A stretch of 64,000 bases of DNA, taken from IMG/VR virus record IMGVR_UViG_2565956726_000008. One strand, 5' to 3'. Both the position numbers and the translations under genes were made by a program. This DNA is from a virus (Duplodnaviria; Heunggongvirae; Uroviricota; Caudoviricetes). Under the pieces are notes generated by a model, which was given only the letters and a program-made list of their open reading frames with translations, searched no databases and was not told where the DNA came from. Position 1 is the stretch's first letter; every line of letters begins with the position of its first letter. This document shows positions 3,943 through 55,381 of this stretch, in pieces.

Positions 3943-3960
3943 TATGTTATTGCCTCCGGT

Positions 3961-7489: not shown

Positions 7490-7747
7490 TCATCCCTCCG
7501 GCAACATCACTACATAGACATCACTGAATGCATCAAGACGACAAACAAATCCTTTATCCATTAACGCGGCGAAGGCATCATGTACCGTATGAACAGGAAG
7601 TTCACACATTGCGGCTACTTCTTTGCGTGATGCATCATGTACCCGTCCTTTGTTATCTGCCTTTTCAGCCAGAGCCATTAAGACAAGTTTTTGAATCGGG
7701 CTATTAAGTTTTACGTTCCATGCTTTACTAATCATGTTCATACTCAT
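7490..7747 (-). CDS. HTH DNA-binding early regulator (Cro-position)
   Basis: 85 aa from ATG at 7747 with aggag RBS (longest ORF extends to 7825 with TTG); first gene of leftward operon, divergent from CI-type repressor. Confidence 0.5.
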   Translation of the reverse strand: MSMNMISKAWNVKLNSPIQKLVLMALAEKADNKGRVHDASRKEVAAMCELPVHTVHDAFAALMDKGFVCRLDAFSDVYVVMLPEG

Positions 7748-8052
7748 CGCATTTTCTCCTATGGTTAGAGTGAACGCGCGGGCGGGCATCCCATTAGCAT
7801 TAGATAGCAGTGACTGACCGCTCAACAGATCCCGCCGTTGCGTGATATTTGTTTTTCGCTTCGCAGCGACACCGGATTTTTAAAGAGCATAAGGTAAGTG
7901 CCTTTTTGTGCCTTCAGTTATCTTTTTCCTTGCGTCTTTGCAAGTATGGCCTTACCTTGTCTGCAAGTTTACAAAATGGAATTTTAAGATCAAGGCTTAA
8001 AATACACGTTTTGTGACTTGCATCAAACTTTTTGAGGTTATAGGGTAGCGAC
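7748..8052. promoter_or_regulatory. Immunity region: divergent promoter/operator interval between Cro-like and CI genes
   Basis: 305-bp intergenic; palindromic half-sites CTTGC-N6-GCAAG (7929-7944), CTTG-N3-GCAAG (7956-7967), AAGG-N6-CCTT (7891-7904). Confidence 0.5.
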
Positions 8053-8700
8053 ATGAAAACAAAATGGTATGACTTAGCAAAGCAGCTCATGCGGGCGCAG
8101 GGCATGAGTCAGGATTCACTCGCAGATCTCATGGGGATAACTAAAGGCGGCCTGTCACACTGGCTGAACGGTCGCCGCGAGCCAAATCTTGAAGATATTG
8201 CGCGGATTATGCGGGCGCTTGGTCGTCGGCAGTTCACTGTTACACATGATGGTATGGTCATTGATGATTCTGTTTCTAATACACTTCAGGCCGCACCGCC
8301 GCGTGATTTAGGTAGTTACCCGGTTATTGACTGGAAGGACACAGTAAACAATATGGATGACACAAGGCGATCAGCATTACCACACGTTACGACTAGCGTT
8401 ATTTGTTCAGATGATAGTTACTGGCTGGTTGCCAAAGGTGAATCAATGAACGCGCCGCAGGGGTTGAGCATCCCGGCGGGGACGATGATACTTGTTGACC
8501 CGCACGCGCCAGCTATTGACGGCAAACTGGTTATAGCCCAGCTTGAGGAAGGGCAGATACCGACGTTTAAACAGTTGATTATTGATGGAGGTCAAAGGCT
8601 TTTACGTTCGCTCAATCCGCTGTATCCGCCAATCCCTATGAATCCAGAATCAAAAATTATAGGCGTGGTGGTTGATGCGAAGATCGTAAACCTGCCATAA
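8053..8700 (+). CDS. CI-type repressor (XRE HTH + S24 LexA-like peptidase)
   Basis: 215 aa; N-terminal HTH (MSQDSLADLMGITKGGLSHWLNG), C-terminal S24 fold with AKGESM Ser motif and downstream Lys. Confidence 0.9.
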   Translation: MKTKWYDLAKQLMRAQGMSQDSLADLMGITKGGLSHWLNGRREPNLEDIARIMRALGRRQFTVTHDGMVIDDSVSNTLQAAPPRDLGSYPVIDWKDTVNNMDDTRRSALPHVTTSVICSDDSYWLVAKGESMNAPQGLSIPAGTMILVDPHAPAIDGKLVIAQLEEGQIPTFKQLIIDGGQRLLRSLNPLYPPIPMNPESKIIGVVVDAKIVNLP

Positions 8701-9106
8701 ACATTAGCCGCCGGATGGCGGCTTTTCTTTGCCTGGAAAACGCCAAAACGTAAACAGAAAACGTTATTTATTGTTTAAATATCAATAGCATATAAAATAT
8801 TTTAAAAAAGTATACAAAATGGATTGACTCGATGTTTTACGGGGCGTATATTGCGAGTCAAAGGAAGGTCGCAGGTAACAAAAGCAACTTCCTGGCACTT
8901 TAAAAATCAGGCTTAACACCTTGTCAACCGTGGAGTAACTCCCCGATGGGGGACCGAAAGCGGCACTGATAACAAGGCGCATGGGGTGTTTAAAGCGTTA
9001 CATCCCCCACGAAACCGCACGCAAGGCGACGAGTCAGCTTGCTTGGAGTGAGCAAGGTCACGCCGGGAACGGCGATGATTGCGGGATTAGTTGAAAGATG
9101 TTAAGC

Positions 9107-9144
9107 CGCTCATTAACAATCTGGTCAGCCGCTGGAAGTGCGGC
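9107..9144 (+). promoter_or_regulatory. nut-like site (boxA-like plus boxB-like hairpin)
   Basis: cgctcattaacaa resembles boxA consensus (GCTCTTTAACAA); 8 nt later gccgc-tggaagt-gcggc hairpin; lies upstream of an Arg-rich ORF. Confidence 0.4.
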
Positions 9145-9200
9145 AATTAACGAAGATGATTTTTTATTAAGTATCATCAAGGATATACGGAGATCAGATT

Positions 9201-9491
9201 ATGAGCGTTACAATCATGTATGGCAAATGTGACAGTAAACTGAATGCCAGGGAACGCAGAAAAATAAAAAGAGAAAACGAAAGAAAATCATCACCTGCAA
9301 TCAATAAAACAGACAATGTGGATAAAGCTATTCGATTTGCAAACGAGGAAAGATGCAAACCAAATAGCATTAAAGAACGTCGCAAAGGATCAGTAAAATG
9401 GTATACGGAAAATGAAAGCGGCAGCTACTACCACGCAACGCAACCACGCCATTTAGGGGAAAAACCCCTGGATAAAGTCCGCTACCATTAA
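9201..9491 (+). CDS. putative N-like antitermination protein
   Basis: 96 aa, basic; arginine-rich motif NARERRKIKRENERK near N-terminus; ggag RBS; follows nut-like site. Confidence 0.35.
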   Translation: MSVTIMYGKCDSKLNARERRKIKRENERKSSPAINKTDNVDKAIRFANEERCKPNSIKERRKGSVKWYTENESGSYYHATQPRHLGEKPLDKVRYH

Positions 9492-9520
9492 TACAAAATG
9501 TAAACATCCGGAGATGACAT

Positions 9521-9640
9521 TATGGTTATTCAGGCGCTTCAATTCAAACTGGCAGTAGCGGAAATGCTTCACGATGCCGAAATGTGGAGCGCCGCGAATA
9601 AAGCCTTATACATAGTGTTAACAGCACGGGAGATTAAATA
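9521..9640 (+). CDS. small hypothetical protein (39 aa)
   Basis: ATG with ggag RBS; stop abuts erf start codon. Confidence 0.25.
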
Positions 9641-10282
9641 GTGAAAACAGAGTTACATAAAAAGCTATGGACGATTCAGCAAACGCTGAACGCGCCGAAA
9701 AATCAGCGTAATAATTTTGGTGGATATAATTACAGGTCGGCGGAGGATATTTTAGAGGCGGTTAAACCACTGCTTCAAAATATCACGCTGACTGTTAGTG
9801 ATGAAATTGTCCTGATCGGCAATCGCTATTATGTGAAAGCAACGGCGGCGCTAAGCGACGGTGAAGACGTAATAGCGGTAACTGCTTATGCCAGGGAAGA
9901 AGAAAGCAAGAAGGGTATGGACGCCAGCCAGCTAACAGGAGCAACATCAAGTTACGCGCGGAAATATGCTTTGAACGGTTTATTCTGTATAGATGATGCT
10001 CGCGATCCTGATACTGATGCTTACGCGAAGCAGACAGGCCAGCAGCCGCGACAACAGAAAAACCCACCAAAACAACAACCGCAGCAGCAGAAATCGCCGC
10101 CAAATCCTGATGAAGTATTAGCACGTTTCTGTGATGCGGCAGCGAAAGCGCAGGACGAAAAAGCGCTTAAAGATATTTTTGCTAAATGCTGGAAGTTATT
10201 ACCTGAAAACTCAGAGCAACGACAGAAAGCGAGCGACGTATACCAGATCAGAAAATCAGAGCTTAACGGGGAGATGGGTTAA
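9641..10282 (+). CDS. erf: Erf-family single-strand annealing protein
   Basis: 213 aa; by-eye similarity to P22 Erf (LNAPKNQ...YRS.EDILE.VKPLL, VSDEIVLIG.RYYVKATA, GMDA.Q.TGATSSYARKY.LNGLF.IDDA.D.D). Confidence 0.85.
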   Translation: MKTELHKKLWTIQQTLNAPKNQRNNFGGYNYRSAEDILEAVKPLLQNITLTVSDEIVLIGNRYYVKATAALSDGEDVIAVTAYAREEESKKGMDASQLTGATSSYARKYALNGLFCIDDARDPDTDAYAKQTGQQPRQQKNPPKQQPQQQKSPPNPDEVLARFCDAAAKAQDEKALKDIFAKCWKLLPENSEQRQKASDVYQIRKSELNGEMG

Positions 10283-14178: not shown

Positions 14179-14718
14179 ATGAAAAATGATTACGGCGGCA
14201 GCCATACGCCGAAAGAAATAAAGGACTTATGGCAAACGCCAAAACCCGTTTTTAGAGGAATGGATCGAGAATTCGAGTTCGTCGCGGATGTGGCGGCAAA
14301 CAAGGCAAACGCATTAATACCGCGATATATAACCGAAGAAATGGACACGCTCCATTATCCGTGGGGAGCGGTGGCGATGCCTGGTGAGTATGTCTGGATG
14401 AATCCGCCATATTCTAATCCGGGGCCATTCGTTGATAAAGCGGCGCTTGAACACAGCCGAAATCATATCGGATGCGTAATGTTATTGCCCGCTGACATTT
14501 CTGTTAGCTGGTTTATGAACGGCGTGGAGACGGCAAACGAATGCCGATTAATCACGCGCGGGCGGCTGGCGTTTATCAATGCTGCAACAGGGAAACCAGT
14601 AAGCGGGAACAATAAGGGGAGCTTGTTCCTGATCTGGCATCCACGATGCAGACATGAATGTATTTTCACGCAGATAACACGTAAAGAGCTATATGCAAGA
14701 GGTGCAGAAAATGAATAA
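14179..14718 (+). CDS. phage Dam-type DNA N6-adenine methyltransferase
   Basis: 179 aa; WQTPKPVF ... FVADVAAN ... VWMNPPYSN (catalytic NPPY motif) typical of small phage Dam methyltransferases. Confidence 0.8.
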   Translation: MKNDYGGSHTPKEIKDLWQTPKPVFRGMDREFEFVADVAANKANALIPRYITEEMDTLHYPWGAVAMPGEYVWMNPPYSNPGPFVDKAALEHSRNHIGCVMLLPADISVSWFMNGVETANECRLITRGRLAFINAATGKPVSGNNKGSLFLIWHPRCRHECIFTQITRKELYARGAENE

Positions 14719-15031
14719 AGCGGCTGAATTGCTGAGACTTGCGGCTGAAACTATCGAGGCAAGAGGGGAGCAAAACGGATACGATCGAAAAGAAGAAAAA
14801 TCAGCGCCAAAAATAGCGGCTATTTTCAACGCTAAGATGAATGCGAATTTAACCCCACTTGATGTATGGGATCTAATGATTTGCCTCAAGGAAGCGCGTT
14901 TAGGGGCTATTCTCGCTAATGGAACTGATCCGCTCGACACTCTTATAGACCTTATTGCTTATAACGCGCTTAAGGCCGAACAGATATTAGCGTATCGGGA
15001 GGAAGAGCTAAATGAAGATGGTGGCAATTGA
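14711..15031 (+). CDS. hypothetical protein (106 aa)
   Basis: ATG at 14711 with gaggtg RBS, 8-nt overlap with methyltransferase gene. Confidence 0.4.
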   Translation: MNKAAELLRLAAETIEARGEQNGYDRKEEKSAPKIAAIFNAKMNANLTPLDVWDLMICLKEARLGAILANGTDPLDTLIDLIAYNALKAEQILAYREEELNEDGGN

Positions 15032-15515
15032 CAGGTTATTAGCCTGCGTTTATGTCGCCGTTTTCGTTATCATCAATCTTATTGTTAACCACTGTGGCCC
15101 GTGGGTAATTCCGATCACCACGGTAGCCGCCGTGTGTGTCAATATGATGATTCGTGATTTTCTGTTATATGACGGCGGCCTTAAATGGTCGGCTACAACA
15201 TGCGCCGCCGCTGGCGCAATCACGGTGCTGATAAATTACGACGCCGGAATGGTGGCGATCGCGTCATTCGTCGCGGTTGTTTCCGGTGCGCTTATTTCTG
15301 GCGGCGTTTACCGGGTTTTACCTGGTGATTTCGATTCTAAACGCTGGCCTGCAAATATAGCGTCCGCCATTGGCGATGCGTTAATTTTCCCAACGCTATC
15401 GTTTATGGCATTCATGCCGGAAATATCAGCTATGCAATTCATCTCAAAAATGGCGGCGGTAACGGTGATCACTATCATCATGCGCCGCTACTTTACGTTC
15501 GAGGGTAGGAAATGA
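15012..15515 (+). CDS. polytopic inner-membrane protein (about 5 TM helices), function unknown
   Basis: 167 aa, strongly hydrophobic; weak by-eye resemblance to YhhQ/DUF165-type transporters, not verifiable here. Confidence 0.5.
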   Translation: MKMVAIDRLLACVYVAVFVIINLIVNHCGPWVIPITTVAAVCVNMMIRDFLLYDGGLKWSATTCAAAGAITVLINYDAGMVAIASFVAVVSGALISGGVYRVLPGDFDSKRWPANIASAIGDALIFPTLSFMAFMPEISAMQFISKMAAVTVITIIMRRYFTFEGRK

Positions 15516-16276: not shown

Positions 16277-16278
16277 AG

Positions 16279-16357
16279 TTTACAAAATGGCATCATTGCG
16301 TGATGCGGATCACATAATGGCGCTTTTTGCCTTGTTTGGGGGTATCCATTTTGTATA
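16279..16357. repeat. Intergenic motif pair TTTACAAAATGG / CCATTTTGTATA flanking GTGA-N6-TCACA palindrome
   Basis: tttacaaaatggcat (16279-16293), cgtgatgcggatcaca (16299-16314), atccattttgtatac (16343-16357). Confidence 0.7.
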
Positions 16358-16435
16358 CTTCAAGCAAACAAAATGCTCTTTAAAAATCCGGCAGCGCTGA
16401 AATGCGTAGAAATCACCTGAAAAGGAGAGAGCATT

Positions 16436-55107: not shown

Positions 55108-55381
55108 CAAAAGCAATTTTTCCGGCTATCTGTATACAAAAACGCCGCAAAGTTTGAGCGAAGTCAATAAACTCTCTACCCATTCAGGGCAATATCTCTC
55201 TTGCAGGTGAATGCAACGTCAAGCGATGGGCGTTGCGCTCCATATTGTCTTACTTCCTTTTTTGAATTACTGCATAGCACAATTGATTCGTACGACGCCG
55301 ACTTTGATGAGTCGGCTTTTTTTTGCCTGTTATTTATCAGCGTCTACCCTTTAAGAGTCCACCCAATGACCGGAGGGAAAT

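Follow-up and report, generated by a model that had tools for sequence, protein, structure and literature searches.

The subject of this report is the early leader of a temperate phage in a 64,000-nucleotide stretch of DNA (IMG/VR record IMGVR_UViG_2565956726_000008; the window), and in particular a structured insert of 213 nucleotides within that leader. Open reading frames (ORFs) listed for positions 7500-10200 give the plus-strand order repressor gene, terminator, AT-rich spacer, promoter, about 340 nucleotides without a convincing gene, and an ORF of 96 amino acids. Positions 8700-9500 are 94-98% identical to phages mEp021, mEp010, mEp515 and MagusPhagus, and the stretch occurs in 35 of 5,426 complete Escherichia coli genomes. 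This close identity, together with synteny with mEp021-type genomes, assigns the phage to the mEpimmI group. Taken as a whole, the interval is probably the untranslated early leader of an mEp021-type (mEpimmI) E. coli prophage, which carries the structured insert as an RNA-level cassette.

The repressor gene (8053-8700, plus strand) encodes a cI-like protein of 215 amino acids that matches Pfam HTH_3 (5e-13) and Peptidase_S24 (4e-19) and is a homologue of mEp021 gp15/Rep021, with 96% identity. The repressor transcript is predicted to end at a strong intrinsic terminator (8706-8723, plus strand) whose 7-bp stem has six G-C pairs and is followed by TTTTCTTT; a terminator after the repressor gene is also annotated in the mEp021 and mEp013 records. 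The predicted sigma-70 early promoter, TTGACT-17-TATATT (8824-8852, plus strand), agrees with the consensus at 10 of 12 positions, and transcription is predicted to start near 8856-8860. Its TTGAC and CGTATA.T sequences are invariant even in the farthest relatives, and the promoter spacer varies. In the minimum-energy fold of the plus-strand RNA, the leader begins with a stem-loop, AGGAAG...CUUCCU (8862-8893), and a further hairpin, GAUGAU...AUCAUC (9155-9178), lies between boxB and the ribosome-binding site. The latter hairpin is deleted in the RM9245-type leader.

The structured part of the interval is a discrete unit of 213 nucleotides, 8895-9107, situated between the promoter and a nut site. 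A previous sequence-only reading of the window had recognized this block, but gave it a length of about 300 bp, which is too long, and placed it at the position equivalent to rexAB. That position lies between cI and the terminator and is empty; the block is downstream of the early promoter and within the leader. The block had also been called GC-rich, which holds relative to the AT-rich promoter flank (GC content 0.50-0.57 versus 0.25-0.40) and not otherwise. The individual elements named in that reading are all present, including the boxA-like sequence cgctcattaacaa at 9107-9119, the boxB-like hairpin gccgc-tggaagt-gcggc at 9128-9144 and the cttgct/agcaag hairpin at 9038-9056.

The 5' end of the insert is a degenerate boxA copy, GCACTTTAAAAATCAGG (8895-8911, plus strand). 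This copy matches the gamma-proteobacterial boxA consensus GYTCTTTAANA, which is taken from PMC5725501, at 10 of 11 positions, and it is identical at 15 of 17 positions to the boxA plus spacer of two other nut sites in the window, nutL and nutR2. None of its 17 columns is variable among carriers. The core of the insert (8910-9107, plus strand) is a multi-branch domain closed by a helix that pairs 8910-8918 with 9099-9107. The edges of the core are 13-nucleotide inverted termini, GGCTTAACACCTT at 8910-8922 and AAGATGTTAAGCC at 9095-9107, which are complementary at 12 of 13 positions (92%).

An alignment of the window with mEp021, mEp013, E. coli PAR and E. coli RM9245 reveals that mEp013 and PAR are without exactly this segment of approximately 213 nucleotides. 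Their leaders pass from GGTTACTT directly into GCTCTTTAA(T/C)AATCTGGTCA and then boxB, and thereby contain a perfect rrn-type boxA. At the same place, the leader of the window passes from CTTCCTG into GCACTTTAAAAATCAGG-CTTAAC and, at the other end of the block, from GTTAAGCC into GCTCATTAACAATCTGGTCA and boxB, such that the native boxA follows the block. Phages mEp044 and mEp554 likewise lack the insert (76% coverage, with about 585 nucleotides spanned).

Only two leader states were found among 52 leaders drawn from IMG/VR, metagenomes, genomes and phages: 37 have the insert and 14 do not, and no third kind of insert occurs at the nutR1 site in these 52. About 70-90% of family members carry the insert. 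Short leaders have a perfect boxA (GCTCTTTAA(C/T)A) at the homologous position in all 10 unique sequences. In long leaders, the native boxA is imperfect in 27 of 28 unique sequences and takes four different forms, whereas the upstream boxA copy is identical, and imperfect, in all 28. One metagenome contig (OQVL01004386.1) has an insert identical to that of the window, diverges totally from the middle of boxB (approximately 9138) onward, and differs by 66% in the gp17 region. Either recombination has given it another downstream module, or the contig is an assembly chimera.

The leader folds more stably than shuffled sequences, with a z score of -4.06 for the plus strand and -3.26 for the minus strand. 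The 198-nucleotide core has a minimum free energy of -77.4 kcal/mol; after correction for GC content, this places it in the top 0.4% among 3192 equally long windows of the 64 kb. The RNAalifold consensus of 16 distinct sequences has a closing helix of 17 pairs over about 20 nucleotides, two sub-domains closed by CGUGG/CCACG and CCGCA/UGCGG, and five hairpins, one of which has a GGAA or GAAA tetraloop. The outer closing helix has a pairing probability of about 1.0, and in the same ensemble the nutR1 boxA is unpaired and its boxB is formed. The sole helix with compensatory substitutions is the hairpin CUUGCU(U)-GGAGU-(G)AGCAAG (9038-9056, plus strand), in which three pairs are changed on both sides, one more becomes a wobble, and no pair is broken. 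Two further pairs of the insert change on one side through G-U. The changes of G-U type (three one-sided) are neutral on the plus strand only, which agrees with an RNA read from the early promoter. RNA folding and covariance analysis had been proposed in the sequence-only reading as its check. The helices other than the hairpin at 9038-9056 exhibit no compensatory change, and five pairs are broken in some sequences. The same reading had drawn a stem-loop from ccttgt...acaagg. These sequences exist, at 8919-8924 and 8972-8977, but their pairing belongs to an alternative fold that is 6.8 kcal/mol above the minimum. It competes with the inner closing helix, and no variation discriminates between the two folds.

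Two sets of co-occurring changes lie elsewhere in the core. The change of 9062 from G to A, which converts a G-C pair to A-C, and the change of 9067 from G to A, which converts the loop GGAA to GAAA, occur together in 8 of 20 sequences. A second joint change affects positions 8990 and 8999, on either side of the loop of the hairpin at 8983-9006 (U/U to C/C or A/C). Both sets may reflect non-canonical or tertiary contacts.

A search of the whole window with Rfam 15 at gathering score gave no match in 8650-9550, and a search of that segment at E values up to 10 gave only chance-level matches, none of them in the insert; no tRNA or tmRNA was found. Nor is there a plus-strand promoter-like or terminator-like site inside 8860-9107 of the kind that an independent small-RNA gene would have. 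The only nearby plus-strand promoter-like match, at 9091-9120, straddles the 3' edge of the insert, points downstream and is weak (9 of 12 positions).

A compact, conserved RNA of this kind might nonetheless be released from the leader, and the sequence-only reading had allowed for a small regulatory RNA in the interval. In such a scheme the insert is the precursor of a trans-acting small RNA of about 170-200 nucleotides, cut at the closing helix (for example, by RNase III) in early lytic growth, that acts on host or phage targets or on host defence. The 17 pairs over about 20 nucleotides that surround the domain would suit such cutting, and a boxA directly upstream of the 5' arm recalls the layout of rRNA operons, from which stable RNAs are excised (PMC4807359). 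The insert is also highly conserved, and specificity could reside in the hairpin at 9038-9056, which varies while the rest of the RNA is invariant. However, the insert has no promoter or terminator of its own and matches no known small-RNA family, and no target was identified for it. A trans-acting small RNA is unlikely.

The insert is confined to a narrow group of phages. It is present in 31 of 5,426 complete E. coli genomes, once in each and always at the nutR1 leader locus; no copy was found in 72,556 plasmids, and none in phages other than those of the mEp type. An exact 22-mer of the insert has no match in 185,579 species-representative genomes, although diverged copies would escape such a search. 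Its single copy and single locus indicate that the insert is not a multi-copy mobile element and is confined to the mEp021-type phage group. Scans of IMG/VR and metagenomes for more distant homologues gave only near-identical copies, and because only close relatives were found, the power to detect covariation is low. Relatives of the Gp17 protein encoded downstream form only 32 protein clusters, each with an identity of 63% or more across the alignment, and none was found in species-representative genomes.

The insert is an island of conservation, with a divergence 5-10 times lower than that of either flank. Mean pairwise diversity among 29 unique carrier haplotypes is 0.000 in the upstream boxA copy and 0.017 in the insert core. 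The corresponding values are 0.065 in the cI gene, 0.067 in the 5' leader, 0.073 in the terminator and spacer, 0.088 in nutR1 and 0.107 in gp17. Relative to the RM9245 type, the insert outside one hairpin differs at 4 of 194 positions, while the synonymous divergence (dS) of cI is 0.56 and the spacer differs by 12%, the 5' leader by 16%, the segment from nut to ATG by 47% and gp17 by 27%. Relative to another carrier, L026, the dS of cI is 0.48 and the insert has 0 differences in 213 positions. Ascertainment bias in this pattern is limited: the BLAST search of E. coli genomes could reach about 70% identity and found no copy below 93%. The island is the product of purifying selection or, alternatively, of the block having moved as a cassette.

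A rival reading is that the insert is selfish or neutral DNA with no phage function. It would be an element resembling a miniature inverted-repeat transposable element (MITE), or a cassette moved by recombination between flanking boxA-like repeats, and would be tolerated since its inverted termini fold back in the RNA and the nut site stays intact. This reading is possible, if doubtful. The terminal inverted repeat, with its 12 complementary positions in 13, is what would be expected of a MITE or insertion sequence, and the core is flanked by 17-nucleotide direct repeats, GCACTTTAAAAATCAGG and GCTCATTAACAATCTGG, that are identical at 13 of 17 positions. Presence and absence of the insert are scattered over lineages that differ in their gp17 and boxB types. 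Phages with flanks 10-50% apart have nearly the same insert, as recent transfer would produce, and the native boxA of the long leaders is damaged in four ways. By comparison, a transposing element should occupy several loci, and no transposase is associated with this single-locus insert. The direct repeats do not match perfectly and exceed the usual length of target duplications, and no perfect short target-site duplication was found. Moreover, pairing of the hairpin at 9038-9056 is kept through compensatory changes, and most family members carry the insert.

The GenBank records of mEp021 and mEp013 annotate an ORF of 37 amino acids at this place. That of mEp013, which has no insert, is unrelated and lies upstream. 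In mEp021, the ORF is gp16, a "hypothetical protein" that corresponds to 8981-9094 (plus strand) of the window, and the block might be presumed to encode it. Besides this annotation, gp16 has in its favor that it is open in 20 of 21 variants examined. However, variable sites are distributed over codon positions 1, 2 and 3 as 8:4:5 and the changes are non-conservative, on which grounds gp16 was rejected as a protein. The substitutions in the hairpin at 9038-9056 turn ..QLAWSEQGH.. into ..QITWIEWCH.. (L-A-S-Q-G to I-T-I-W-C), and in one variant the stop codon is lost. Only AAGG, 3 nucleotides ahead of the ATG, resembles a ribosome-binding site, so a Shine-Dalgarno sequence at the proper spacing is lacking, and the predicted fold places the start codon within a helix. 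The ORF matches no Pfam or PHROG family, and the RefSeq annotation of the 31 E. coli genomes has no feature at the insert. Finally, conservation is equal over the 86 nucleotides of the insert that precede the ORF. That the block encodes this protein is extremely improbable. Very probably gp16 is not a gene and the database annotation is thereby corrected, and the statement in the sequence-only reading that the interval holds no protein gene is upheld.

The nut site downstream of the insert is composed of a boxA, cGCTCATTAACAa (9107-9119, plus strand; one mismatch to the consensus), and a boxB hairpin, GCCGC-UGGAAGU-GCGGC (9128-9144, plus strand), that starts 8 nucleotides past boxA. As GCTCATTAACA, the boxA matches GYTCTTTAANA at 10 of 11 positions and is predicted to be unpaired with a probability of 0.8-0.99. 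In the folded leader, boxB has a pairing probability of about 1.0; it is a short, G-C-rich hairpin with a purine-rich, GNRA-like loop. Relatives have GCUAC-UGAAAU-GUAGC, GCAC-UGAAAA-GUGC or CGC-UGAAAU-GCG at the position of this boxB. As would be expected of a nut site, the pair lies in an early transcript downstream of a repressor-controlled promoter, which is here a predicted one.

Two more boxA-spacer-boxB sites in the window share this grammar, as do relatives, with boxB loops of GCGA, UGAAAU and UGAAAA among them. nutL lies on the minus strand at 7856-7889, with boxA TGCTCTTTAAAAA at 7889-7877 and boxB UCGCU-GCGA-AGCGA at 7869-7856. nutR2 lies on the plus strand at 16374-16407, with boxA TGCTCTTTAAAAA and boxB CGC-UGAAAU-GCG. 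The boxA plus spacer, TGCTCTTTAAAAATCCGG, is identical in these two sites. Two operator-like sequences, at 16277 and 16346, precede nutR2 and suggest that a third early promoter is under repressor control.

The 96-amino-acid ORF (9201-9491, plus strand) is a homologue of gp17, which encodes an N-like antiterminator. Its Shine-Dalgarno sequence, GGAG, is at 9189-9192 with a spacing of 8 nucleotides. The protein contains the motif NARERRKIKRENERK, an arginine-rich motif with R17, R19, R20 and R24, all four of which are invariant across 14 relatives. It is 94% identical to mEp021 Gp17 and matches PHROG 271, "anti-termination protein N-like" (E = 1e-11). Its match to Pfam N_peptide (E = 0.02, 15.8 bits) is under the cut-off of 27.9, which places it outside that family by the family's own threshold. 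Its small size, basic character, N-terminal arginine-rich motif and match to this PHROG profile are the features of a lambda-N-like antiterminator. In mEp021, Gp17 is an experimentally shown lambda-N-like early antiterminator according to Negrete-Mendez et al. 2025, citing Valencia-Toxqui et al. 2023, and that publication (PMC11893012) states that arginines 17, 19, 20 and 24 are conserved. Of the three sites that it names as targets of Gp17, nutL is upstream of the repressor gene, nutR1 is upstream of gp17 and nutR2 is farther downstream. All 48 family members have nutR1 at a similar place, and it varies more than the other two sites; terminator read-through dependent on the protein and on Nus factors is reported for mEp021 Gp17 and its nut sites.

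The site at 9107-9144 corresponds to the published nutR1, because no other nut-like site ahead of gp17 is shared by every leader examined, because its diversity of 0.088 fits a variable site, and because its boxA and boxB are identical in the window and mEp021. The sequence-only reading had called it nutL, which is only a difference in naming. That reading's arrangement of promoter, nut site and N-like gene with an arginine-rich motif on the plus strand is confirmed by the PHROG 271 match, by the identity to Gp17 and by the antitermination published for mEp021 (PMC11893012). The nutR1 boxA and nutR2 are 7,947 bp apart in mEp021. The abstract of Valencia-Toxqui et al. 2023 reportedly puts nutR2 more than 7.9 kbp downstream of nutR1.

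Two pairings that involve nutR1 were noted. In the minimum-energy fold, the nutR1 spacer AAUCUGGUC (9116-9124) pairs with GAUCAGAUU (9192-9200), between the Shine-Dalgarno sequence and the start of gp17, with an unpaired probability of about 0. This predicted pairing could link occupancy of the nut site to translation of gp17. It is weakened in mEp021 and largely lost in leaders of the RM9245 and L040 types, and so is not conserved. Also, the deviating base of the upstream boxA copy (GCACUU instead of GCUCUU, 8895-8900) creates perfect complementarity to AAGUGC in boxB (9137-9142, loop and 3' stem). This complementarity is absent from RM9245-type leaders and from the variant L017, and is probably due to chance.

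The likeness of parts of the insert to nut elements raises the question of whether it is itself an auxiliary or decoy nut site, whose boxA-like head and GNRA-type hairpin loops would be bound by Nus factors or Gp17, with the effect of tuning or autoregulating antitermination or the translation of gp17. Its head is close to the boxA plus spacer of nutL and nutR2. The hairpin GCCG-GGAA-CGGC (9062-9073; GAAA in variants) resembles the boxB of nutR1, as does the hairpin at 9038-9056 with its loop (U)GGAGU(G), and the native boxA is imperfect wherever the insert is present. However, these apparent resemblances are short, and the mismatch in the upstream boxA falls in the conserved core. The linkage between the hairpin variant and the gp17 type is trivially explained by proximity. 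An auxiliary or decoy role is very unlikely.

We favor the following explanation. Transcription would start at the promoter at 8824-8852 and proceed through the 5' hairpin, the insert and nutR1 into gp17. The arginine-rich motif of Gp17 would then bind the boxB loop on the nascent RNA and host Nus factors would bind boxA, and the polymerase would pass downstream terminators. The part comprising nut and gp17 very likely works like lambda N with nutL, as published for mEp021 and judged here from near-identity. The insert itself is, with reasonable likelihood, a separate, dispensable and non-coding cassette that acts at the RNA level from the plus strand. This last assessment is an umbrella over the narrower functional readings, and the likelihoods given to the various readings do not add up to one. 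Anatomically, the cassette would consist of the degenerate boxA copy followed by a 196-nucleotide multi-branch domain, with a long-range helix that joins its flanks and leaves the nut site free.

As to mechanism, the likeliest, which we propose tentatively by analogy, is a role in cis in the leader, in which protection from Rho and processing at the closing helix set the dose of Gp17. The boxA-like head and the compact fold would keep the long untranslated 5' region from Rho termination. The closing helix of about 20 bp, which is similar to RNase III substrates, would set processing or stability of the leader, and thus the amount and timing of Gp17. The cassette would in effect protect and fold itself with the help of Nus factors. 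A long non-coding 5' untranslated region triggers Rho termination, and boxA relieves it (PMC4807359). In rRNA operons, the 5' arm of a long-range RNase III stem is immediately preceded by a boxA, and Nus factors are thought to help the arms meet (PMC4807359). These findings on Rho, boxA and rRNA stems are the reason that a leader cassette acting in cis is favored. A more elaborate version is rather unlikely: here the insert is a self-contained phage RNA cassette, with a Nus-recruiting boxA head and a helix-closed RNA of 196 nucleotides, that is excised as a stable regulatory or anti-defence RNA, or else serves as a sensor, or as an auxiliary platform for loading, and in this way sets the dosage of Gp17, and that spreads among mEpimmI phages as a unit by recombination at boxA. 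If so, the Gp17 dosage set by the insert would influence the decision between lysis and lysogeny.

Several observations weigh against the favored explanation. Both boxA copies of the long leader deviate from GYTCTTTAANA, so the upstream copy may not bind Nus factors. Since phages that lack the insert are viable, whatever role it has is accessory. Its low divergence could come from recent cassette exchange and not from selection; in mEp021 and L026, divergence stays low past the right-hand edge of the insert, which indicates that mosaic history accounts for part of the island. Within the fold, the broken pairs are 5 of 11 variable ones and include two in the inner closing helix, and most pairs are invariant and hence uninformative. 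Covariation rests essentially on one helix and probably on one lineage event, such that the structural evidence is real but thin. Finally, the placement of the published nutR1 at this site is inferred.

Several features of the surroundings complete the picture of the locus. An operator-like 16-mer, AAGTATACAAAATGGA (8808-8823, plus strand; repeat families D8 and D10), abuts the -35 hexamer of the early promoter and is taken to be the repressor's operator. The asymmetric 14-mer AGTWTACAAAATGG has eight copies in the window, where 0.04 are expected; these are at 3958, 7966, 8809, 16277 and 22955 and, on the minus strand, at 16346, 42603 and 44196. Four copies are at three early promoter/nut regions, and the other four are scattered over the prophage. 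The 14-mer may serve as the repressor's operator, in which case additional sites exist beyond the immunity region, or another regulator may bind it. The small RNA FnrS (55203-55320) and the antitoxin small RNA RalA of the Rac prophage (59630-59808) match Rfam over their full length. These matches indicate that the window runs from the mEp021-type prophage into the E. coli chromosome beside Rac. PMC11893012 gives the ydaM region as the integration site of the mEp021 phage group, in agreement with the Rac-side chromosome end of the window. The strongest GC-corrected folding signal of the window is at 14960-15440 (plus strand), with a residual z score to -3.6 and a z score of -4.91 versus shuffles. 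It is inside the ORFs at 14693-15031 and 15012-15515 and may be incidental to coding sequence.

Both the nut site and the N-like gene are already known, as is the way they are arranged. The Gp17/nutL/nutR1/nutR2 system of mEp021 (Valencia-Toxqui et al. 2023, Arch Virol 168:92; Negrete-Mendez et al. 2025, PMC11893012) is the same system, with 94-98% nucleotide identity and identical boxA and boxB. The window and mEp021 have in common the gene order repressor, terminator, promoter, nut, gp17, erf and ssb; the Gp17 of the window has K21, and most members of the mEp021 group have R21. The accessible mEp021 literature does not mention the 213-nucleotide insert or its absence from mEp013, mEp044 and mEp554, and in the accessible text of PMC11893012 the terms "gp16", "sRNA" and "non-coding" occur 0 times. 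The insert therefore is apparently undescribed, as far as this literature shows, and has no curated RNA family.

The insert is situated where a temperate phage commits to early gene expression, and could matter for that reason. Cultured siblings with the insert (mEp021, mEp010 and mEp515) and without it (mEp013, mEp044 and mEp554) have leaders that are otherwise near-identical, and are natural controls for one another. They make it possible to ask how a long leader escapes Rho, whether boxA chaperones the folding of a non-ribosomal RNA, and how the dose of an N-like protein is set. The comparison of leaders also establishes that the native boxA is degenerate whenever the insert is present.

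Three known systems invite comparison. The put RNAs of phage HK022 are cis-acting antiterminator RNAs of about 70 nucleotides, with two stem-loops, that are located downstream of PL and PR, need no phage protein and replace the N system. Like put, the insert is a structured RNA in the early leader of a temperate coliphage, at the usual position of nut. Unlike put, it is dispensable, has no Rfam match and accompanies a complete N-like system.

In lambda, the PL-nutL-N leader contains an RNase III-sensitive structure that governs translation of N and lies between nutL and the N ribosome-binding site. This control of the N leader by RNase III is said to be the subject of work by Kameyama et al. 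in 1991 and Wilson et al. in 1997. The window resembles lambda in having, on one strand, a repressor gene, an operator and promoter, an untranslated leader with boxA and boxB, and a small arginine-rich antiterminator gene. It also has a large structured element in the leader of its N-like gene, a plausible point of post-transcriptional control. In contrast to lambda, the structure is upstream of the nut site and has a boxA-like head of its own, there is no sequence similarity (the N_peptide match is below the cut-off), and the phage belongs to a non-lambdoid group with three nut sites.

Compared with an rRNA operon, the RNA enclosed by the predicted long-range helix is 196 nucleotides and is not rRNA, and the upstream boxA has a mismatch in its core. 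The likeness is in the layout: as in rRNA operons (PMC4807359), a boxA-type sequence is positioned just upstream of the 5' arm of a long-range helix around a structured RNA, and a second boxA follows. The nutR1 boxA of the short leaders, TGCTCTTTAACAA, is the rrn boxA itself.

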